Below are positions 1,397 through 9,711 of a stretch of 43,019 bases of DNA, piece by piece. The notes beneath the pieces are model-generated. The model had not been told where the DNA came from, searched no databases, and saw only the letters and a program-made list of their open reading frames with translations. This stretch comes from a virus. The position numbers were made by a program, and so were the translations under genes. How positions within the stretch are numbered: the first letter of the stretch is position 1; each line of letters begins with the position of its first letter. The stretch lies in UHGV virus genome UHGV-0172637; one strand, given 5' to 3'.

Positions 1397-2575
1397 TTAG
1401 CTGGCTTTTATTTCTCCATGTGGAACGACAACCCAGTCGATATGGTTTTGCGTGTAAATTTTAGTTGATTTCGCATCGCTATGTGCCATTCGCCCTTGTG
1501 GATCGATACCCTGCTGATCGAAAAGATGCGCAGCCAGCGCTCTGATTTCGTGAAAGGTTGGTCTTTCGTCCATCGGTAGATTGTCGCATAAACCTAGCTT
1601 GTCACGCGTAGCTGAAAACGACCGACTCAAATAATCCGGCGCAACTTGAGTGGGATGTGAAACCTCTTTGCTGCGTTTAACCTGCCGTTCCGGGAGCCTG
1701 TGAACTATAAATGGACTGGCCACATTATCTCGGCTATCGTCAATTATTCGTTTCAACTCTTCCCCAATAGGTATTGCAACATGTGATGCCTCTTTTTTTT
1801 GCACCTTCTGCCTGTGGATATAGAGAGTCCCATATATGCCATTTTCTGGATGTTCTAACCAAACGCATCCGCATACTCCGTCTTTGGGTTCTTTGATGGA
1901 GTAGCGGATCCTTGATACCTCCAGTCGCGCGTGTGTTGTCTGCAATGCCAAATCCATCGCGCTCCGTAACCATGGTTCAGCTGCACGCCTGATAGCTTTA
2001 AAGTTATCAAGTGAGAGGCGCTGGCGTTTCTTCTCTTCTGTCCTACGCATTTTTTTACGGGTTGCCGGGTTATCGAACATTAGCGATTCATCGACCGCAT
2101 ACGAGAATAGTTTTTTAAGAAAGCTGACTTTCCTGTTTTGTACGTTTGCTGAAGCTTCGGCATGGTAGTGGTTTATATAGGCATTCACATGCTCCAGCTC
2201 AATATCGCAAGCTGGTGTGCTGATGAAGAATTCTTTCACTCTCAGAGCATCGTTGTTCCAATCGTCGAGTGTATTCTGTGAGGGGCGCTCATTCTCAATC
2301 GCCCGCTCCATAATATGATCTACGTGTTCAGCAAATGGTTTTGCTTCCCCCGTTACACCGCCAGATTCACGGACAAGTATTTCTACTGATGGTACATTTG
2401 CAGGCCTCATTCTGAGGTTGTATTCACGGGCTATAGCGATCGCTACAGCCCTGTCTTTACCGATATTCTTTTTTTTCCCAGTTATAAGCGTAAATTTATA
2501 AACGCCGCGATCTTTATCGAATATTAGATATTCGGGTAGATGGCGGTATTCTCTTTTTCTTGGCCTGGCTGCCAT
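1397..2575 (-). CDS. int: Tyrosine recombinase, lambda-type integrase
   Basis: 392 aa; C-terminal catalytic signature HEIRALAAHL...GRMAHSDAKSTKIY (His-x-x-Arg ... His ... Tyr), N-terminal arm-binding-like region; adjacent to att and xis. Confidence 0.92.
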   Translation of the reverse strand: MAARPRKREYRHLPEYLIFDKDRGVYKFTLITGKKKNIGKDRAVAIAIAREYNLRMRPANVPSVEILVRESGGVTGEAKPFAEHVDHIMERAIENERPSQNTLDDWNNDALRVKEFFISTPACDIELEHVNAYINHYHAEASANVQNRKVSFLKKLFSYAVDESLMFDNPATRKKMRRTEEKKRQRLSLDNFKAIRRAAEPWLRSAMDLALQTTHARLEVSRIRYSIKEPKDGVCGCVWLEHPENGIYGTLYIHRQKVQKKEASHVAIPIGEELKRIIDDSRDNVASPFIVHRLPERQVKRSKEVSHPTQVAPDYLSRSFSATRDKLGLCDNLPMDERPTFHEIRALAAHLFDQQGIDPQGRMAHSDAKSTKIYTQNHIDWVVVPHGEIKAS

Positions 2576-2577
2576 GG

Positions 2578-2787
2578 TTAACCCTCACTGATAAGCTGGC
2601 GAACCGTATGATTAACCATTGAGTCGACCCCCCATTTTTCAGACTCGCAGACCCAAACAGATCCGTCTACGATTTTGCCTGTGAGAAGTCCGTTTTCAAC
2701 CCAACGTTTAATGGTTCGATTATCCGGGATCGAGTCTTTGGTAAATTCGCGTTTACCCCACTGACTCGCCTTCATAAGTTTTGCCAT
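2578..2787 (-). CDS. xis: Excisionase (Xis-like DNA-binding protein)
   Basis: 69 aa, immediately upstream of and co-oriented with int; winged-helix-like RTIKRWVENGLL motif typical of excisionases. Confidence 0.75.
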   Translation of the reverse strand: MAKLMKASQWGKREFTKDSIPDNRTIKRWVENGLLTGKIVDGSVWVCESEKWGVDSMVNHTVRQLISEG

Positions 2788-2876
2788 GACAGACTCTCCA
2801 TACAGCCCGGCTGCACCCGGGCTTTAATATAAAACGATTGTGCTTTTAATATATAAAGACTTGCCTAATTGTTTAA

Positions 2877-4115
2877 TTACTTTTTCATCACCTTTTCAGC
2901 AACACCAGCAATTGCCTCAAGTCCATCAAACATTGCTGGTATATTATTTTCATTGTTTTGTATTGGACTAAAAATAAGAGCATCAAAAGAGTCTAAAACT
3001 TTCTCAATAGCAATGTTATTTTTTCTTCTATATTCAACATACCCATCAATGAAAGCACATAAGCTGAGCCTTAGATCAATCTGCATAAGTTGAGTTCTTA
3101 AAGCCTTCGCTTCTAAATATGAAAGTCTGAAAAAATAAATAATTGCCATCTCAATAGTAATAAATGGGAATAGAATGAAGATCGCTGAATAATCTTTAGG
3201 ATATAAATCAGGGAAAGAAAAATGGATTATTACAGCAATCACAGGAGCAATGAATACAGTCCCAAATAAATTTTTATAATTCATTTCAGTTGTAGAAAGC
3301 TCTTTCTCTTTTTTTTCTTTTATTATGTTAAAACCAGAGCTTAACCCAACAAAATTATACTCTGATTTTAAATTTCTCACACGCTCCTCTAGTGCCTTAA
3401 TTTCATCCCTTGATTCATCCACGTATTTTAAATTAGCATCTGCTTCTAGTTTTCCATCTACAATAGCTTTTTTAATGTCATTATAATTATCAGATATTAA
3501 TGATATGGATGCTTTAGTGTCTTTGTTAATTTTATCAATAGCCAAATCTAAGTTGCTAGAAATTTCATCGAGAAACTTCCGTTTGTTTTCGTCGAGGTCT
3601 GATATAAAGTTTCTAGCATCAGTTAGTTTGTTACTGTTTAGTAACCACTTCATAAGTGAAATAGGTAGTTTGTCTCGAATCCATGAAAATTGGTATTTAC
3701 CTTCATTATCCTTGAAAGTGTTTTCTAATAATGTCAATTTGCTGTCTGTGATAAAGTTAGGCGTGATAATGGAACGAGTGCCTGTCCAATAATAGTACTC
3801 GTACAATACTCTTAACAAGGTTGACAAAAAATCAATCTTGTCTTTCTTGTAATCGTCAACTTGAAATTCCATGTGCAACAATATATTGTCTTGATTAAAA
3901 CCTGTATTCTCATCTAAATGTTGTGGGTTGTTATTTATTATTGATATAAAAGTCGACCATGCTGAGTCCAATGTAGTATAGAATAAAGATATGCTATTAT
4001 CTTTCTTTTTGGCGGATTTCTTGGACATTTCTTCAAACCTAATAAGATCTCTACTAATTATAGTATTTGTTTCCTTTATTGAATTAAGTATTTTATTATC
4101 GCTATATAGTCCCAT
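2877..4115 (-). CDS. Hypothetical membrane-anchored protein (coiled-coil region, two C-terminal TM helices), AT-rich accessory gene
   Basis: 412 aa; Lys/Asn/Ile-rich, visibly AT-rich DNA; hydrophobic segments LFGTVFIAPVIAVIIHF and YSAIFILFPFITIEMAIIYFF; heptad-like segment DESRDEIKALEERVRNLKSE. Confidence 0.6.
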   Translation of the reverse strand: MGLYSDNKILNSIKETNTIISRDLIRFEEMSKKSAKKKDNSISLFYTTLDSAWSTFISIINNNPQHLDENTGFNQDNILLHMEFQVDDYKKDKIDFLSTLLRVLYEYYYWTGTRSIITPNFITDSKLTLLENTFKDNEGKYQFSWIRDKLPISLMKWLLNSNKLTDARNFISDLDENKRKFLDEISSNLDLAIDKINKDTKASISLISDNYNDIKKAIVDGKLEADANLKYVDESRDEIKALEERVRNLKSEYNFVGLSSGFNIIKEKKEKELSTTEMNYKNLFGTVFIAPVIAVIIHFSFPDLYPKDYSAIFILFPFITIEMAIIYFFRLSYLEAKALRTQLMQIDLRLSLCAFIDGYVEYRRKNNIAIEKVLDSFDALIFSPIQNNENNIPAMFDGLEAIAGVAEKVMKK

Positions 4116-4193
4116 TTCTATACCTTTTTAAATATTATTATGTTTCATTGAGTGATGAGATATTTTACGATCAATTTTCCGGTTTTGCTTCAT

Positions 4194-4225
4194 AAAATCC
4201 CCACCCTTTCTAAGGAAGGGGATCT
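4194..4225 (-). terminator. Possible terminator separating the early-left operon from the AT-rich accessory gene
   Basis: Minus strand ATCCCC...GGGGAT stem followed by TTTT; long loop, so weak. Confidence 0.3.
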
Positions 4226-4232
4226 AAATCTC

Positions 4233-5060
4233 TTATGGTTTAAATATTCCGATGAAAGTGTCCACTGATTCACACTCGAACTTGCTGATCAGCAAATTGC
4301 GGAATTCATTGGCGATCTCTTCTTCCTGGGCTTCAAGTTGGACGATGCGCAGAACAAAGCAGGGTTCATCGCTGGTCAGCAGGCTGTTACGCAAGCTAAA
4401 ACGGCGTTCGCCCAGACCTTCATACGGTACACATTTGAATTCAAACGCCACAGGCATTACGTCTTTGCTGCTTGCTTCAACGCTTTGCATCAGCGATTTT
4501 TTACCAGCGAAATCACCAGTTTCATGGTCCTGCTGGGTTGCTTGTTGAATGGTGATACGACGCACAGCCTGAGCCGCCTGGGAAATCTGCATCGTATTAC
4601 CATCGGCATCAAACGCGAGCAGGTAGTCACTCCAGTCTTCCAGCCATTCAGCGATTTGCTTTTGCTTCAGACGTTGACCATCGATCTGCAGTAACGCGCG
4701 GAACGGGGCGGTTTTCTTCAGGGTGATTGAAGCAACATTATCGGCGTGACCGGGATTATCCAGGGTGCCGATGTTGAACACTGAACGAGCGGTCATGTTG
4801 TCAGCGTCAATGAAGCAACGGGCTGGCTCGCTGGCGCTGGCGTAACCTTTAGAATAACGTGCGAAGTCGTCAATACTGGTTGTGGTCATTGCGCCACGGA
4901 AGCGGAAACGCTCCAGAGAAAAGCGCTCAAGGCTTTCAACGCCAGTACCTTCTGGCAATAATGCGGTCGGGCAAGCCAGGTCCTGAATATCATTCAGGTG
5001 ATAACCGGAAAGAACCAGGTCTTTGACCTGCTTGAAGGTACCGCTGTCTAACTGAGACAT
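4233..5060 (-). CDS. Phage early protein, possibly YfdQ-like (DUF2303-type)
   Basis: 275 aa ORF in the early-left operon; length and position resemble the yfdP-yfdQ pair of E. coli cryptic prophage CPS-53 (recall only, not verified). Confidence 0.4.
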   Translation of the reverse strand: MSQLDSGTFKQVKDLVLSGYHLNDIQDLACPTALLPEGTGVESLERFSLERFRFRGAMTTTSIDDFARYSKGYASASEPARCFIDADNMTARSVFNIGTLDNPGHADNVASITLKKTAPFRALLQIDGQRLKQKQIAEWLEDWSDYLLAFDADGNTMQISQAAQAVRRITIQQATQQDHETGDFAGKKSLMQSVEASSKDVMPVAFEFKCVPYEGLGERRFSLRNSLLTSDEPCFVLRIVQLEAQEEEIANEFRNLLISKFECESVDTFIGIFKP

Positions 5061-5116
5061 AAAAATTCCTTATTAACTGATGATCAAAGTGGTATCAGTG
5101 AGTTTGTTGTTGCGGA

Positions 5117-5491
5117 TCACTGAGCCGCTTTAAGCTTTCCATCCACCGCGCCAGTGATCCCGAACAGCTGACCCTGATCTTCCTGCAGGATGGTGAGCTT
5201 CCCGCCTTTGTTGACCCACATCGGGGTTTCGGTTGTGTCCTCTTCGGATGCTTTACCACGCGGTGTTGGGGTGCTGTAGTTCAGCTTGTGCTTGATCTTG
5301 ACGCGCTTCTCTTCAACGGAATTACCCATGCGCTCAAAATCAAATGTGAGGACTACTTTGCCTTTGTTGCCGTTGTTCAGAACGCCAAGTGCGGTGGTAT
5401 TAAGTGCTGCCGCGATTTTGTTCATGAACACGCCGGCATCCAGTTCGCCAAGAAAATCTGGCACTACGGTCATGCGGTCATTACTCATGGT
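5117..5491 (-). CDS. Hypothetical early-left protein (124 aa from the RBS-supported start)
   Basis: ORF track gives 5117-5575; internal ATG at 5491 preceded by GAGGG RBS; first gene after a ~500-nt ORF-free leader. Confidence 0.5.
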   Translation of the reverse strand, partial: TMSNDRMTVVPDFLGELDAGVFMNKIAAALNTTALGVLNNGNKGKVVLTFDFERMGNSVEEKRVKIKHKLNYSTPTPRGKASEEDTTETPMWVNKGGKLTILQEDQGQLFGITGAVDGKLKAAQ

Positions 5492-5998
5492 TTTACCCTC
5501 GTTATGGCGGCTGCCACCGCCGAACTTTCTCCATACACAACAGAGAAGGGCACCTGCATTTGTCGGCGACTGCAATCGCCATCCTCTTGCCCTGGTGGAT
5601 TGGGTTATGAGCCCGTCGCCCGGTGATGCCCTTTTCTGTTGTGCCCTGAAAAAGGCTGGCGGTTACCGGACAAATGGGAAAACACCGGGCCGCCAGAACA
5701 GGGAGTTACTTGTTATTGCTTTGGCCTGCTTTTAACCACATCAGGCGCGGTGGTAGGTATCTTCGGGCGGGGTGCTAAGGGGGTGATTAGCCCTTGCCCT
5801 TAACACTCCTGCTGGTTTTGGTATTCCTGGCTTGGGTATCGCCACCAGCTATAGGAATTTGACTACGAGTTGCGGTTAATCAGGCCGCGCCTCTGTTACC
5901 CCTCCCGAAGACACCTGTCAGCTAATCATCCGGTTATTCATATGCCACCGGCGGCTACTTCGTGGGCGTCCTGCCTGTTCGCTGTTTGTTTATTTAAT

Positions 5999-6048
5999 GT
6001 AGGATAACTTACAAAGAAAGGTCAAGAGGAAATGTTGGATAACTTACA
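5999..6048 (-). promoter_or_regulatory. Leftward early promoter/operator region (OL/pL-like): two operator copies flanking a TTGACC -35
   Basis: 16-bp sites TGTAAGTTATCCTACA (6014-5999, minus) and TGTAAGTTATCCAACA (6048-6033, minus); minus-strand TTGACC-18nt-TACATT mirrors the rightward promoter at 6768-6797. Confidence 0.55.
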
Positions 6049-6054
6049 TTGAGG

Positions 6055-6085
6055 GGTGAAAAAAAACCGGGATAACCCGGTTTCC
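6055..6085 (-). terminator. Rho-independent terminator immediately downstream of the repressor gene
   Basis: Stem CCGGG-ATAA-CCCGG followed on the minus strand by a run of 8 T. Confidence 0.7.
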
Positions 6086-6732
6086 TTATAAATCCATTAT
6101 CACTTGTCTTACTAATCCGACCAAACGGCAGTTGCCGTTTACCTCGAGCATCCTGTAGTTGGGATTGAGAGGTACAAGGTATTTAAGCGGACCATCAATG
6201 ACGAATTTTTTTATAGTGGCTTCGTCACTTCCCATTAGCTGAGCAATGACAATTTTACCATTTGCTTGGCTGGCATCTCCAAAGTCAGGTTCTACGACGA
6301 CGAGAGAGCCCTCCGGGATGCTTGGTGCGCCATTTGGGTTAGTCATTGAGTCACCGCGGACTATTAGTGCAAAAGCGCTCTCTGAAACAGCTGCTGAAGT
6401 GTAAACCCAGTCTTGAATGTCTCGTTCCGTTATCGCACCACTATTGGCAGTCCATTCCCCGGCTTGCACCCACGTTAAAACGGGAACTGATCTAATTCCG
6501 AATCTCTGCTCTGGGTTCATTGTTGGCGGTTGTTGTTTCCCGTCATCCTTACCCTCCAGCAACCACTGCGGTGTCTTTTCAAGAGCAGCAGCAAGCGCCT
6601 GAAGGTTCTCACCGCCAGGTTTATAGTCACCAGATTCCCAGCCGGTGATCGTGACGCGGTTTACCCCGACAAGCTTTGCCAGGACAGATTGCGTCATCTT
6701 CAGCTCTTTTCGTCTGCTTCGGATTCGATCAT
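6086..6732 (-). CDS. Prophage repressor, cI/LexA-like (HTH + S24 peptidase domain)
   Basis: N-terminal XRE-type HTH (MTQSVLAKLVGVNRVTITGWESG), C-terminal S24 autopeptidase signature (RGDSM ... K); start taken at ATG 6732 rather than track start 6820. Confidence 0.9.
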
Positions 6733-6797
6733 TCATTTTCATGTAGGCAATCCTACCATTTTCTAATGTAGGAGTGCTTGACCATTTTATGTAAGAT
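6732..6797 (+). promoter_or_regulatory. Rightward early promoter/operator region (OR/pR-like) with three operator-like sites
   Basis: Sites TGTAGGCAATCCTACC (6732-6747), TGTAGGAGTGCTTGAC (6757-6772), TGTAAGATATCCTACT (6780-6795); TTGACC (6768-6773) - 18 nt - TACTAT (6792-6797) upstream of cro-like gene. Confidence 0.6.
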
Positions 6798-6841
6798 ATC
6801 CTACTATTTATGCACTGCATGACCTAACTCCAGAGGGAAAA

Positions 6842-7039
6842 ATGAAAAAGAATGACGTTATCTCTTACTTCGGTGGCGTAGGGAAAACCGCCAAGGCGCT
6901 GAATATCTCCCACGCATCTGTATCGGGCTGGGATGAAGTTATCCCAAAGGGGAGGGCATTTGAGATCCAGGCGCTGACGAAAGGTGATTTGAAAGTTAAC
7001 CAATCCCTTTATGAAAAGCGTAGTCATTCGGCTGCGTGA
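6842..7039 (+). CDS. Cro/YdaS-like HTH regulator
   Basis: 65 aa, divergent from repressor across the operator region; HTH GKTAKALNISHASVSGW; AGAGGG RBS. Confidence 0.8.
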   Translation: MKKNDVISYFGGVGKTAKALNISHASVSGWDEVIPKGRAFEIQALTKGDLKVNQSLYEKRSHSAA

Positions 7040-7067
7040 TTAAAACCACAGAAATTAGGGGACAACC

Positions 7068-7634
7068 GTGGATAAACAACACTGGAAAGTAGAGCGACAA
7101 CCAGCTTGGCTGGTGGCTGCAATCAAAAGAACGATCGCCGAAATGTCGGGTGGGTATGCCGAAGCAGCTGAATGGCTTGGTCTGTACCGCGCTGGAAAAC
7201 TCTCAACGGATGCACTCTATAACCGACTACGTAACGAAGGTGATCAAATTTTCCCGCTTGAGTGGGCGATGGTGCTTCAGGATGCGAGCGGTACTAAGTA
7301 TGTCACCGATGCGATAGCCCGCCGTAGTGGTGGTGTATTCGTTCCGCTGGTGGAAGTAGATGATCTTGATAACGGCGATATCAACCAGCGTCTGATGGAG
7401 TCAATCGAATGGATTGGCAAACACTCGCAGTACCTGCGTAAGGCAACCGCCGACGGGGTTATTGATCCGGCAGAACGTGAGCAGATTGAAGAGAACAGTT
7501 ATCAGGTAATGGCTAAGTGGCAGGAGCATTTGACGCTGCTATTCCGTGTTTTCTGCGCGCCAGAAAAGAGTGACGCCCGCGAGTGTGCAGCTCCGGGCGC
7601 CTTGGCGAACAACTCTTCGAGTATGGAGAAATAA
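7068..7634 (+). CDS. CII-like/YdaT-like early regulatory protein
   Basis: 188 aa, GTG start with RBS, immediately after cro-like gene; family assignment from memory of Rac ydaS-ydaT arrangement. Confidence 0.45.
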   Translation: MDKQHWKVERQPAWLVAAIKRTIAEMSGGYAEAAEWLGLYRAGKLSTDALYNRLRNEGDQIFPLEWAMVLQDASGTKYVTDAIARRSGGVFVPLVEVDDLDNGDINQRLMESIEWIGKHSQYLRKATADGVIDPAEREQIEENSYQVMAKWQEHLTLLFRVFCAPEKSDARECAAPGALANNSSSMEK

Positions 7635-7806
7635 TCCGCATGAGCAGTTTAACGGCTTTTAACCGTCTACCGCAACTCAGGATGATCCCGGTTTCGGGTA
7701 CTCCGTTGTTTCGGTATGAACGCAGATTATCAAACCGCTGGGTTCCGTGTAACCACAGTAGGGCGGTTTCAATTGTGGGGGTCTATAACCGGAGGGCAAA
7801 ACGCCT

Positions 7807-7986
7807 GTGCGCGAACTTAACCGAAGGTTCAAAGACCACCGCGGAGTGTCTGTCCGTGTTATCCGCTGGGAACCAGAAACACAACGCGTTATCTACCTGC
7901 GTGATGGCTACCCGCACGAATGCTTCAGCCCACTTGAGCATTTCAGGCAAAAGTTCAGGGAGATAACGGACGATCATGAGCACTAA
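7807..7986 (+). CDS. Small hypothetical protein (59 aa, GTG start)
   Basis: Not in ORF track (below its size cutoff); GGAGGG 10 nt upstream of GTG; fills gap before replication gene and overlaps its start by 11 nt. Confidence 0.3.
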   Translation: MRELNRRFKDHRGVSVRVIRWEPETQRVIYLRDGYPHECFSPLEHFRQKFREITDDHEH

Positions 7987-8833
7987 ATTAACCGGCTACG
8001 TATGGGATGGTTGCGCGGCGTCGGGCATGAAGTTGTCTAGTGTCGCGATCATGGCTCGCCTCGCTGATTTCAGCAGCGATGAGGGAGTGTGCTGGCCGTC
8101 CATTGAAACTATTGCTCGCCAGCTTGGCGCAGGGCCGAGCACTATCAGAACGGCAATCGCAAAGCTTGAAAAAGATGGCTGGCTCACGCGTACACAGCGC
8201 CGTAATGGTAACCGTAATGCGTCGAACGTGTACCGCCTGAATGTGGCGAAACTTCAGGCTGCCGCATTTTCTCAACTGTCAGATTCTGACACGTCAAAAT
8301 CTGACGCATCAAATTTTGACGCCTCAAAAACTGACCCGTCGAAATCTGGCAAAAACGGCGGTTTTGACCCGTCAGAATCTGGCGGGGATCCGTCAGTAAA
8401 ATCAAAACAAGATCCACAAGTAACTTCAAAACCCTCTTGTCCGGTTGCGGCGCAACCAGACCCTGAAGTCGTGATTACTGATCAGGCAATTTTGGTTCTG
8501 ACCCATTTGAACCAGATCAGCGGATCCCGGTATCAGAAATCAAAAACATCCCTGGAGAACATCCGTGCCCGACTGCGTGAGGGATACAGCGTTGCAGACC
8601 TGCAACTTGTTATCGACCTGAAGCATGAGCACTGGCACGAGAACGACGAGCAGTACCAGTACATGCGCCCGGAAACGCTGTTCGGCCCGAAGAAATTCGA
8701 GAGCTATCTGCAAAGCGCTACCCGCTGGGAGCAGAAGGGACGGCCTAAACGTGCTGACTGGGGAGCGAAAAAGCGCGATGTGATGGCTTTTGGTCCGGTT
8801 GAAACAACGATTCCAGAGGGGTTCAGAGGATGA
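7976..8833 (+). CDS. Replication initiation protein (lambda O-like) with internal origin iterons
   Basis: N-terminal winged-helix region, low-complexity middle encoded by the iterons, conserved phage C-terminal domain. Confidence 0.75.
   Translation: MSTKLTGYVWDGCAASGMKLSSVAIMARLADFSSDEGVCWPSIETIARQLGAGPSTIRTAIAKLEKDGWLTRTQRRNGNRNASNVYRLNVAKLQAAAFSQLSDSDTSKSDASNFDASKTDPSKSGKNGGFDPSESGGDPSVKSKQDPQVTSKPSCPVAAQPDPEVVITDQAILVLTHLNQISGSRYQKSKTSLENIRARLREGYSVADLQLVIDLKHEHWHENDEQYQYMRPETLFGPKKFESYLQSATRWEQKGRPKRADWGAKKRDVMAFGPVETTIPEGFRG
8285..8402 (+). repeat. Origin iterons: about six direct repeats of ~15-18 bp (consensus TGACNCNTCAAAAWC) followed by an AT-rich stretch
   Basis: tctgacacgtcaaaatc / tgacgcatcaaatttt / tgacgcctcaaaaac / tgacccgtcgaaatc / ttgacccgtcagaatc / ccgtcagtaaaatc read directly in sequence. 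Confidence 0.75.
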
Positions 8834-9711
8834 CGTTAAACAAATATTGCCAGGCGCTGGTGGCACTACGTAGCCAACCAGCCCACGAATTGAAAGAAGT
8901 TGGCGATCAGTGGCGGACACCGGATCTGCTTTTTTGGGGTATCAACGCGCTATTTGGTCCATTAGTTCTGGACTTGTTTGCTGACGACGACAACGCGAAG
9001 TGCCCGGCATGGTACACCGCCGAAGATAACGCGCTGACACAGAACTGGTCTGAACGTCTGGATGAACTGGGCGGCGCGGCTTTTGCCAATCCTCCATATA
9101 GCCGCTCCCAGTATCACGACAAGCAGGCGATCACGGGTATGACACACATCATGAATCACACCATGGACATGCGTGAAAGAGGTGGTCGCTATATTTACCT
9201 GGTGAAGTCTGCCACAAGTGAAACATGGTGGCCGGAAGATGCCGATCACATCATGTTTATTCGTGGTCGTATTGGGTTCGATCTGCCTGTGTGGTTTGTA
9301 CCTGCTGACGAAAAACAGAAACCCACCAGCGCGTTTTTTGCCGGTGCCATAGCTGTATTCGATAAGTCGTGGCGGGGTGAGCGGTTCAGCTATATCAACC
9401 GCACAGAACTGGAGGAAAAAGGGCGGGCATTTATGGCTTTGGCTCAATTCGCCGTTGGTAAAGAGCAAACAATTGCAATGCAGGCAGCCAGGGAACCAGC
9501 AGCAACACCGGAAACTGAGTCACGAATCTGGCCTCTCGAGGTTGGTCTGGTGTTTAACCAGGTGGAAGGCGTTGATGTATTGAGCGAGGCCCAGCAGAAC
9601 AAACTGAAAGCCAACATCAATCAACTCTGGCTGGAACGAACGGCCACCAGCGAAATTATCACAATTGCGCGTGGTCTTGTTGGCAGCATGCAGGGGGTAA
9701 CCCATGCGTGA
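8830..9711 (+). CDS. Phage DNA N6-adenine methyltransferase (Dam-like) with C-terminal extension
   Basis: NPPY catalytic motif (FANPPYSRS); position in replication/nin region typical of phage orphan MTases. Confidence 0.75.
   Translation: MTLNKYCQALVALRSQPAHELKEVGDQWRTPDLLFWGINALFGPLVLDLFADDDNAKCPAWYTAEDNALTQNWSERLDELGGAAFANPPYSRSQYHDKQAITGMTHIMNHTMDMRERGGRYIYLVKSATSETWWPEDADHIMFIRGRIGFDLPVWFVPADEKQKPTSAFFAGAIAVFDKSWRGERFSYINRTELEEKGRAFMALAQFAVGKEQTIAMQAAREPAATPETESRIWPLEVGLVFNQVEGVDVLSEAQQNKLKANINQLWLERTATSEIITIARGLVGSMQGVTHA

Follow-up and report, generated by a model that had tools for sequence, protein, structure and literature searches.

A structured, modular, and untranslated leader RNA downstream of the pL-like promoter of a lambdoid prophage lacking N

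Background

We studied the early-left leader of the viral genome UHGV-0172637, a DNA of 43,019 nucleotides (nt) that we call the window and whose positions are used throughout. The leader is the region between the pL-like promoter and the first early-left gene (positions 5489-5989, minus strand). We found that it is an untranslated, modular, and structured pL leader of an N-less prophage of the SfV/ST64B/LLS type. Its principal modules are a promoter-proximal three-way junction (element A), a long clamped domain (element E), a hairpin followed by a U-tract that is a candidate terminator, and a domain in the 5' untranslated region (UTR) of the first gene (element B).

Regulatory leaders in lambdoid pL operons are already known as a kind, namely lambda nutL with the N-leader, and put. 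The put RNA suppresses terminators in cis via the zinc-binding domain of the RNA polymerase beta' subunit, without a phage protein. N is absent from phages SfII, SfV, and SfIV (PMC3851460). Phage LLS, whose early-left operon resembles that of ST64B, has neither N nor a Rec module (PMC12315714). A put-like mechanism in such N-less phages was put forward there as the authors' guess, not as a test (PMC12315714). The initial annotation of the window described an N-less leader free of open reading frames (ORFs), and saw room in it for antitermination of the HK022 put type or for a regulatory small RNA.

Results

Layout of the locus

The window represents the genome of a temperate phage of the SfV/ST64B/CPS-53 type, and profile searches of its proteins covered the genes from int to Dam (1397-9711). 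The features are collected in Table 1.

Table 1. Coordinates of genes, control sites, and leader modules in the window
Feature	Position	Strand	Remarks
Integrase	1397-2575	minus	
Small helix-turn-helix (HTH) xis-like ORF	2578-2787	minus	
412-amino-acid (aa) protein	2877-4115	minus	phrog_9373, function unknown
YfdQ/DUF2303	4233-5060	minus	
yfdP-like first gene	5117-5488	minus	phrog_204 (unknown function); ATG 5488-5486
Shine-Dalgarno GAGGG	5496-5500	minus	8 nt before the ATG of the yfdP-like gene
Hairpin D	5506-5521	minus	GGCGG-UGGCAG-CCGCC; -13.6 kcal/mol; 5 nt before the Shine-Dalgarno
Element B, 5'-UTR domain	5535-5644	minus	19-bp closing helix CACAACAGAAAAGGGCAUC with GGUGCCCUUCUCUGUUGUG
B, inner helix		minus	CCGGG with CC(A)GG, enclosing the invariant core GACGGGCUCAUAACCCAAUCC
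B, variable hairpin	5565-5580	minus	loop UUGCAG
B, anticodon-like hairpin	5602-5614	minus	GGG-CUCAUAA-CCC
Leader terminator candidate	5648-5696	minus	hairpin CUGGCGG...CCGCCAG 5656-5696, then CC-UUUUU; U-tract 5648-5652
Block C hairpin	5724-5754	minus	AACCAC-CGCGCCUGAU-GUGGUU, then AAAAG
Element E, ~160-nt domain	5755-5916	minus	18-bp closing helix AGGUGUCUUCGGG.AGGGG with CCCC.CCCGAAGAUACCU; several internal hairpins
Element A, promoter-proximal three-way-junction RNA	5919-5984	minus	alignment, covariation, covariance model
A, P1	5978-5984 with 5919-5925	minus	closing helix, 5-7 bp across copies
A, P2	5965-5975	minus	GGC-AGGAC-GCC; invariant GGC/GCC helix of only 3 bp
A, invariant junction		minus	CACGAAGUAGC
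A, P3	5947-5951 with 5930-5934	minus	5 bp; conserved loop GGCAUAUGAAUA, across copies GGCRUAYGAA
pL-like sigma-70 promoter	5996-6025	minus	-35 TTGACC 6025-6020, 18-nt spacer, -10 TACATT 6001-5996
Operator TGTAGGATAACTTACA, copy at pL	5998-6013		
Operator, pL-distal copy	6033-6048		TGTTGGATAACTTACA
Terminator of the cI-like gene, intrinsic	6058-6087	minus	hairpin AAACCGGG-UUAU-CCCGGUUU, then U8
S24/HTH cI-type repressor	6086-6742	minus	
Operator, third copy	6790-6805		by pR
P22-type Cro	6842-7039	plus	followed by a CII-like protein, replication genes, and Dam

The operator sequence occurs three times in the window, where 0.2 chance matches would be expected. The copy at pL overlaps the promoter, and the pL-distal copy lies on the far side of it. 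On its upstream side, the OL/pL region is adjoined by the terminator of the cI-like gene (-16.8 kcal/mol, z = -3.0). The putative start of pL transcription lies at about 5988-5990. As was annotated initially, the early-left operon is minimal, and consists of the yfdP-like gene, the YfdQ/DUF2303 gene, the gene for the 412-aa protein, the xis-like ORF, and the integrase gene. The sequence itself places the start of the first gene three bases away from position 5491, where it had been set. The homologous yfdP-like coding sequence in Escherichia coli ECONIH4 is 372 nt long.

The leader has no long ORF and no N

From about 5989 to the first gene, neither strand contains an ORF longer than 34 codons, and the leader of about 500 nt is indeed free of genes and of any conserved ORF; the longest minus-strand ORFs are 24-34 codons, not 7 and 11 as first reported. 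Length differences of its modules among relatives are not multiples of three (B, 87-130 nt; E, 148-165 nt). These differences, together with the lack of a long ORF, indicate that the leader is non-coding.

An N-type gene is likewise lacking, as had been proposed. No N-like arginine-rich protein was found in the pL operon, either among the leader ORFs (at most 34 codons) or among the profiled genes, and those downstream of the leader are the operon genes named above. Between 5489 and 5989 there is no match resembling boxA (YGCUCUUUA), and no boxB-type pentaloop hairpin; the only boxA-like match of the whole window lies inside a gene at 9466.

RNA structure prediction, one of the checks suggested at first, showed that the whole leader folds with z = -4.0. 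A search of the window with Rfam 15 gave no match at the gathering threshold, and in the region 5000-6900 only chance-level matches appeared at E-values up to 10. In 15 relatives, Rfam found only C4, isrK, and tRNAs, all of them elsewhere, and nothing on A, E, or B. Core sequence strings of these three elements gave only irrelevant matches in the searchable text of papers. The folded modules of this leader are apparently undescribed, and they match no Rfam family.

Element A is a conserved three-way junction

We aligned 107 distinct copies of A. Compensatory changes were detected by RNAalifold in 10 of the 13 pairs, and 22 unpaired nucleotides are invariant. Pairing is kept in 96.6% of the alignment cells, as compared with 42% at most when the partner is slid, and the covariation value of 0.627 (at most 0.13 when slid) was reached by none of 500 shuffles. 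By eye, the P2 loop keeps a GGA motif across sequence variants. The comparison of the copies establishes A as a real conserved RNA structure. On the opposite strand, the G.U pairs of A would turn into A.C mismatches, which assigns A to the strand transcribed from pL.

The window scores once with a covariance model made from A (R1), at 89 bits (E 4e-31), and the pR side gave no further match. In the window's copy, UUAGC occurs where nearly all relatives have UUCGC, resulting in a G.A mismatch (5980/5923) in the middle of P1.

The A block is present in 51 phage records, where it is almost always unannotated. The hosts of these phages are Escherichia, Salmonella, Shigella, Yersinia, Pantoea, Pectobacterium, Klebsiella, Citrobacter, and Aeromonas, and T5-like Providencia phages, with A in their terminal repeat, are also among the records. 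A bacterial scan with one genome per species gave 118 loci, about 105 of which are true copies, all in Enterobacterales. At least 120 loci were found in IMG/VR with a corrected pattern, and 187 distinct A leaders were tallied overall.

A structure of about 66 nt, closed by P1, with an invariant junction and loops carried on covarying stems, and located in a 5' leader upstream of a terminator candidate, could be a riboswitch-like sensor, namely an aptamer that binds a ligand or an ion and links host physiology to read-through into the early genes. However, no conserved expression platform was seen, the sequence after P1 differs between subtypes, and P1 showed no alternative pairing with the terminator; moreover, A is not associated with metabolic genes, and P2 has only 3 bp. 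We consider a sensor of this kind improbable.

Comparison of A with put

We located putL of HK022 by the residues named in the cryo-electron microscopy paper (PMC9378689), and trained a covariance model (R2) on seven putL sequences (HK022, UPF_BP1, phiEt88, CobraSix, S9-5, PdC23, and HK639). As a positive control, R2 recovered the divergent putR of HK022, which is outside the training set, with 32.4 bits (E 6.6e-6). Its best match in the window scored 9.7 bits (E 2.1) and was located outside the leader; the covariance search for put that had been called for thus found nothing in the leader. R2 also found nothing in the leaders of ST64B, SfV, ECONIH4, LLS, Stx2a_1447, and mEp460. In the reverse direction, R1 found nothing in HK022 and HK639, and a BLAST search of putL against the window gave no match. 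The record of HK639 annotates a putL-like RNA, which is clearly a put homologue and not A. A resemblance to put in the leader of Stx2a_1447 and mEp460 (ACGGCG...CAUGCGUCG) was not supported by the put model.

A and put have much in common. Both are RNAs of about 70 nt directly downstream of pL in a lambdoid phage without N, with cI upstream on the same strand and terminators downstream, and A, as in HK639, occurs only as a left-operon copy. Their architectures are different, as put consists of two adjacent stem-loops separated by a single-nucleotide gap and has no enclosing helix, whereas in A a covarying P1 encloses a three-way junction. A is also the commoner of the two (51 phage records vs. 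24). Unlike put, it is often accompanied by boxA and sometimes by N-like genes, and binding of RNA polymerase by A is only a candidate function. A shares the address and the size of put, judging from the models and the architecture, but not its family membership. A diverged member of the HK022 put family in this leader, for which the putL-like position after pL, the length of about 70 nt, and the N-less phage would speak, is extremely improbable: both models, BLAST, and the architecture are negative, and the pR side has no second copy. The original proposal is supported in its general part and not in its specific suggestion of put. The leader does have room for regulatory RNA, since A, E, and B are conserved or covarying and the hairpin with its U-tract is conserved, whereas the covariance models rule against a put-like identity.

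Surroundings of A

A promoter-like site lies upstream of A in 120 of 165 distinct copies. The distance from the -10 to P1 is 14-17 nt, and A therefore starts at about +8 to +11; in the window, it begins about 5-10 nt past the predicted transcription start. An S24-type repressor gene is found on the same strand, about 0.8 kb upstream, in 85 of 88 loci. No protein family besides this repressor is common to the A loci, and the downstream genes vary. What follows A also differs between subtypes, being E, a hairpin with boxA, or another sequence.

In a subset of relatives, an exact rrn-type boxA (GCUCUUUAACAA) follows A, in most cases at a distance of 26-28 nt and with a small hairpin in between. 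Among 54 strict boxA sites in about 3 Mb of loci, 33 fall within 220 nt downstream of A, and with a looser pattern, 23 of 165 copies of A had boxA no more than 80 nt away, as compared with 0.33 expected. By a crude regular-expression search, about 32 of the 187 A leaders bear boxA (30 of these 32 are without an N-like ORF), and 154 of the 187 have neither boxA nor an N-like ORF.

Proteins of 75-120 aa with arginine-rich motifs like those of lambda N (e.g., ARRYERRAAFLAKK) are encoded after A and boxA in Xenorhabdus and Photorhabdus prophages (loci L087, L104, L089, L009, L028, and L088), and one of these proteins matches PHROG 271, 'anti-termination protein N-like' (E 3e-6).

The T5-like virulent Providencia phage PR1 (locus L008, about 2985-3075) contains A followed by a boxA-like CGCUCUUUAAAAA, between divergent genes of the terminal repeat; the same was observed in PSTCR5. 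A of PR1 comes directly after a strong promoter-like sequence, and the terminal repeat is the pre-early region by analogy with T5. As these T5-like phages share no lambdoid regulators, any partner of A is probably host-encoded.

These surroundings allow a comparison with two other known systems. Lambda nutL with the N-leader likewise places a promoter-proximal regulatory RNA in the pL leader, and a long helix upstream of the ribosome binding site (RBS) of the first gene. The order in Xenorhabdus prophages (pL, A, boxA, and an N-like gene) is nut-like. Unlike lambda nutL, the window has neither boxA nor a boxB-type pentaloop hairpin nor an N gene. In loci that have both A and nut-like sequences, A lies on the upstream side, which makes it a further module. 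The rrn-type antitermination of untranslated RNA by boxA and Nus factors also serves CRISPR arrays (PMC7665894). The likeness to this system lies in the long untranslated transcript, and in the exact boxA that follows A without an N-like ORF in some relatives. The leader of the window differs in having no boxA, and no boxC was identified; a role of A in such a complex would be conjecture.

Element E and block C

Element E folds with -74.2 kcal/mol (z = -5.7). We found 21 distinct versions of 148-165 nt, all with the same 18-bp clamp and z from -3.3 to -9.1, which enclose at least three unrelated interiors.

Block C is about 94% identical over 31 nt to sequences of lambda (between sieB and ral; locus L131, 1475-1506) and HK620 (before tL2A; L132, 1501-1532). 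Its sequence ACCACCG(C/A)GCCUGAUGUGGUUAAAAG is also present in VT1-Sakai, HK446, HK630, and other pL operons. In the case of LLS (L133, about 2500-2530), block C is the first sequence transcribed from pL. Block C could mark a module boundary, or be functional as a hairpin.

A candidate terminator precedes element B

The leader hairpin at 5656-5696 (-24.5 kcal/mol, z = -2.4) is G+C-rich and followed by a U-tract, and has the makeup of an intrinsic terminator. An automated terminator scan missed it because of its large loop. In an alignment of 25 relatives examined by eye, the stems vary, the U-tract is kept (UUUUUA; CCUUUUUC in the window), and a long helix follows directly. A U-tract lies directly 5' of B in 135 of 138 distinct copies of B, and the 62 nt upstream of it have a median folding energy of -21 kcal/mol (z ~ -3). 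The depositors of SfV annotated a rho-independent terminator inside the equivalent leader.

If the hairpin and U-tract terminate transcription, a discrete RNA of about 340 nt would be made from pL. This leads to an alternative reading of the leader, in which the terminator is efficient, this A-E-C transcript is the main product of pL, and the transcript, or A processed from it, binds or decoys a host factor early in induction, for host takeover or anti-defence, while the downstream genes are expressed by leak-through. Several observations are in line with such a trans-acting RNA. Early transcripts of unrelated phages begin with A (from the lambdoid pL, and in the T5-like terminal repeat, pre-early by analogy with T5), the invariant loops and junctions of A, with the GGA kept in the P2 loop, are typical of a specific binding surface, and no phage protein partner is conserved near it. 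In addition, E resembles a cassette with a constant clamp and swappable interiors, and the terminator is conserved. On the other hand, A is strictly promoter-proximal and linked in cis to early operons, and never occurred as an independent gene that ends in a terminator of its own. The sequence after A varies widely, and in many loci the first terminator-like site is several hundred nucleotides away, which gives no uniform small RNA. We regard a trans-acting product as unlikely.

Element B copies the anticodon arm of initiator tRNA

In 36 representative sequences, the pairing of B is kept in 93.9% of the cells, as compared with 55% at most when slid. Compensatory changes occur in 16 of 32 pairs, and none of 500 shuffles reached the observed value. 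The structure of B is thereby supported by covariation among its relatives.

The hairpin GGG-CUCAUAA-CCC of B and the anticodon arm of E. coli initiator tRNA (metZ) are identical, and the two RNAs share an exact 14-nt word, CGGGCUCAUAACCC; the alignment score of B and metZ was reached in none of 2000 shuffles. The shared word comprises the anticodon loop (CAU) and the three G-C pairs characteristic of initiator tRNA, and both are kept in nearly all relatives of B. The window has no tRNA gene here: ARAGORN gave 0 and the Rfam tRNA model gave none in the window, and it is the anticodon arm alone that has been copied. The core pattern of B occurs in IMG/VR and in metagenomes, at 120 loci or more in each; some of the metagenome matches are chance occurrences in coding DNA.

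Mimics of tRNA anticodon arms occur in other leaders, such as the E. coli thrS operator, and the intergenic-region internal ribosome entry site (IGR IRES) of dicistroviruses mimics tRNA and mRNA. B is similar to these in that a 5' UTR contains a copy of the initiator anticodon stem-loop, with about 115 nt between the copy and the start codon that follows. It differs from thrS and the IGR IRES in that initiator tRNA is mimicked, and in that the genes which follow are diverse and have no connection with tRNA biology. Presumably, the candidate partners of B are the 30S P site with IF3, MetRS, or a toxin that cleaves initiator tRNA, such as VapC. A pairing of the CUCAU loop with the start-codon region was dropped, as by eye it is not conserved among relatives. 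The small RNAs AgvB, AsxR, and Pas, considered for the CACAACA in the 5' strand of B, are 'moron' small RNAs of the late region and are unrelated.

The module of terminator, B, and hairpin D precedes different first genes in different phages. By eye, D has variable stems in relatives, and keeps the loop motif (U/G)GCAG. The motif UGGCAG/UUGCAG is common to D and the variable hairpin of B, which would fit two sites for one factor.

A and B are linked yet separable, since A lies upstream in 65 of 138 B copies and B lies downstream in 65 of 187 A copies.

The lambda N-leader and the early mRNAs of T7 are precedents for leaders that act through RNA processing, and an unstructured untranslated RNA of 500 nt would be an obvious target of Rho. 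The whole leader might serve such ends, with the helices of E and B as RNase III substrates, A guarding the 5' end, D tuning access to the RBS, and the structure mainly keeping Rho off, with RNA polymerase left unmodified by any element. In line with this, long and nearly perfect helices (18 and 19 bp) close E and B, and D sits 5 nt from the Shine-Dalgarno; the boxA present in a subset of relatives has a known role in anti-Rho protection of untranslated RNA (PMC7665894). Protection from decay, however, needs neither the 22 invariant unpaired nucleotides of A nor an exact anticodon arm in B, and leaves the conserved U-tract directly 5' of B unexplained. A leader devoted to processing and stability alone seems to us quite unlikely.

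The leader in relatives

In similarity searches, the order of repressor, pL, long ORF-poor leader, and yfdP-yfdQ recurred in many phages and prophages. These include ST64B (with a gap of about 815 nt), SfV, SfII, SfIV, mEp460, Stx2-converting phages (Stx2a_1447), LLS, and E. coli prophages, among them that of Nissle 1917. None of them matches the leader in full length, and the similarity comes in blocks. In E. coli ECONIH4, 458 nt with an ORF of the ClpX-type zinc-finger kind substitute for 5756-5914 of the window, at the position of E. An ORF of this ClpX C4 zinc-finger type (phrog_20296, unknown function) lies between A and block C in locus L001 (2598-2963) and, as orf33, in SfV (L002, 2595-2891). 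In E. coli K-12 CPS-53, the region upstream of yfdP is truncated and without A and B.

In Stx2a_1447 (L128, 2460-2990) and mEp460 (L129), the terminator and B are present and A is absent, with a leader of about 550 nt of different sequence. A canonical T-loop-like hairpin (CUGG-UUCAAUU-CCAG) occurs in that leader, which may represent a further structured RNA; the mEp460 annotation assigns ORFs to its opposite strand. The leader of LLS (L133, 2440-3030) consists of two successive units, each with a hairpin, a U-tract, and a long helix starting with CACAAC; the second unit is a canonical B, and A is missing.

The isrK and C4 antisense-RNA pair (RF01394 and RF01695) is found in ST64B (L003, 245-433), Stx2a_1447 (L128, 219-407), and locus L044 (7840-8000). 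In ST64B and Stx2a_1447, it belongs to the right-hand operon, within or beside a regulator/antirepressor gene (sb41 and Stx2ac_1447_13, respectively). The window has no isrK or C4 match at the gathering threshold.

This mosaic makeup, the ORFs that relatives carry at the position of E (ClpX-type zinc-finger, SfV orf33), and the resemblance of block C to a module-boundary sequence could point to decayed coding sequence or to a recombination scar without function. Against this stand the compensatory covariation in A and B, the fold of E (z = -5.7) with its clamp kept in 21 versions, and the recurrence of the elements in hundreds of viral contigs. Such a remnant is very improbable, and we regard it, like put homology, as essentially excluded.

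Discussion

We favor a reading in which RNA in the leader of this N-less phage gates terminator read-through and translation. We put its chance at somewhat short of even, and rank it first because A has a constant place at the beginning of early operons, mostly in phages without N, is associated with boxA, and is accompanied by a conserved terminator. When the repressor leaves the operators, host RNA polymerase would start at about 5989, at the promoter and operators seen in the window and a start site predicted for them. The first 70 nt or so would then fold into the three-way junction of A, whose structure is known from covariation and which is promoter-adjacent in 120 of the 165 copies. The polymerase would pass E and C, and then meet the hairpin and U-tract at 5648-5696 in their putative role as a terminator. 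Read-through there would be decided by the leader RNA; the prime candidate is A, which might act on the elongation complex alone or with Nus factors. The RNA that reads through would carry B and D in front of the RBS, and these may set translation of the first gene, RNase III processing, or both. By analogy, such a system would work like HK022 put or lambda nutL with the N-leader.

Several points weigh against this reading. Within 1.3 kb upstream, 73 of the 138 modules of terminator and B have no A, and LLS has the terminator and B without A; A is therefore not universally needed to pass the gate. A coexists with N-like genes in some Xenorhabdus and Photorhabdus prophages, so that it is not simply a replacement of N. 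The leader of the window itself has no boxA, and the adjacency of A and boxA in relatives may be partly due to their shared promoter-proximal placement. The G.A mismatch in P1 may mean that A is weakened in this prophage. Enrichment of terminators downstream of A was not shown by two home-made scans, one too permissive and one too strict, in which the antisense controls equaled or exceeded the sense strand. An automated scan did not find strong minus-strand terminators further down the operon, and thus processive antitermination may be unneeded. Finally, termination at 5648-5652 is a prediction from sequence, and so is any effect of A on it.

A further reading is a joint proposal for A and B, which we offer tentatively and think rather doubtful as a whole. 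A would be a new promoter-proximal RNA class that reprograms host RNA polymerase without a phage protein, either alone or with boxA and Nus factors, as an analogue of put in lambdoid and T5-like phages. B would be a mimic of the initiator-tRNA anticodon arm. Its role would be either to occupy the 30S P site and so promote translation of the first early gene, or to act as a decoy for a toxin or nuclease directed against initiator tRNA.

Conclusions

Many temperate phages of the SfV, ST64B, LLS, and Stx types lack N, and for their passage through early terminators and Rho the literature so far offers a guess at a put-like mechanism (PMC12315714). The leader described here supplies testable candidates, namely the covarying motif A, which hundreds of phage and prophage sequences of Enterobacterales carry, a conserved terminator gate, and B, a widespread 5'-UTR domain that copies an anticodon arm, and ST64B, SfV, LLS, and the related Nissle 1917 prophage are experimentally tractable relatives. 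If the joint proposal is true, A would be a second and more widespread functional analogue of put. A, the gate, or B could reveal new control of transcription or translation by nascent RNA.

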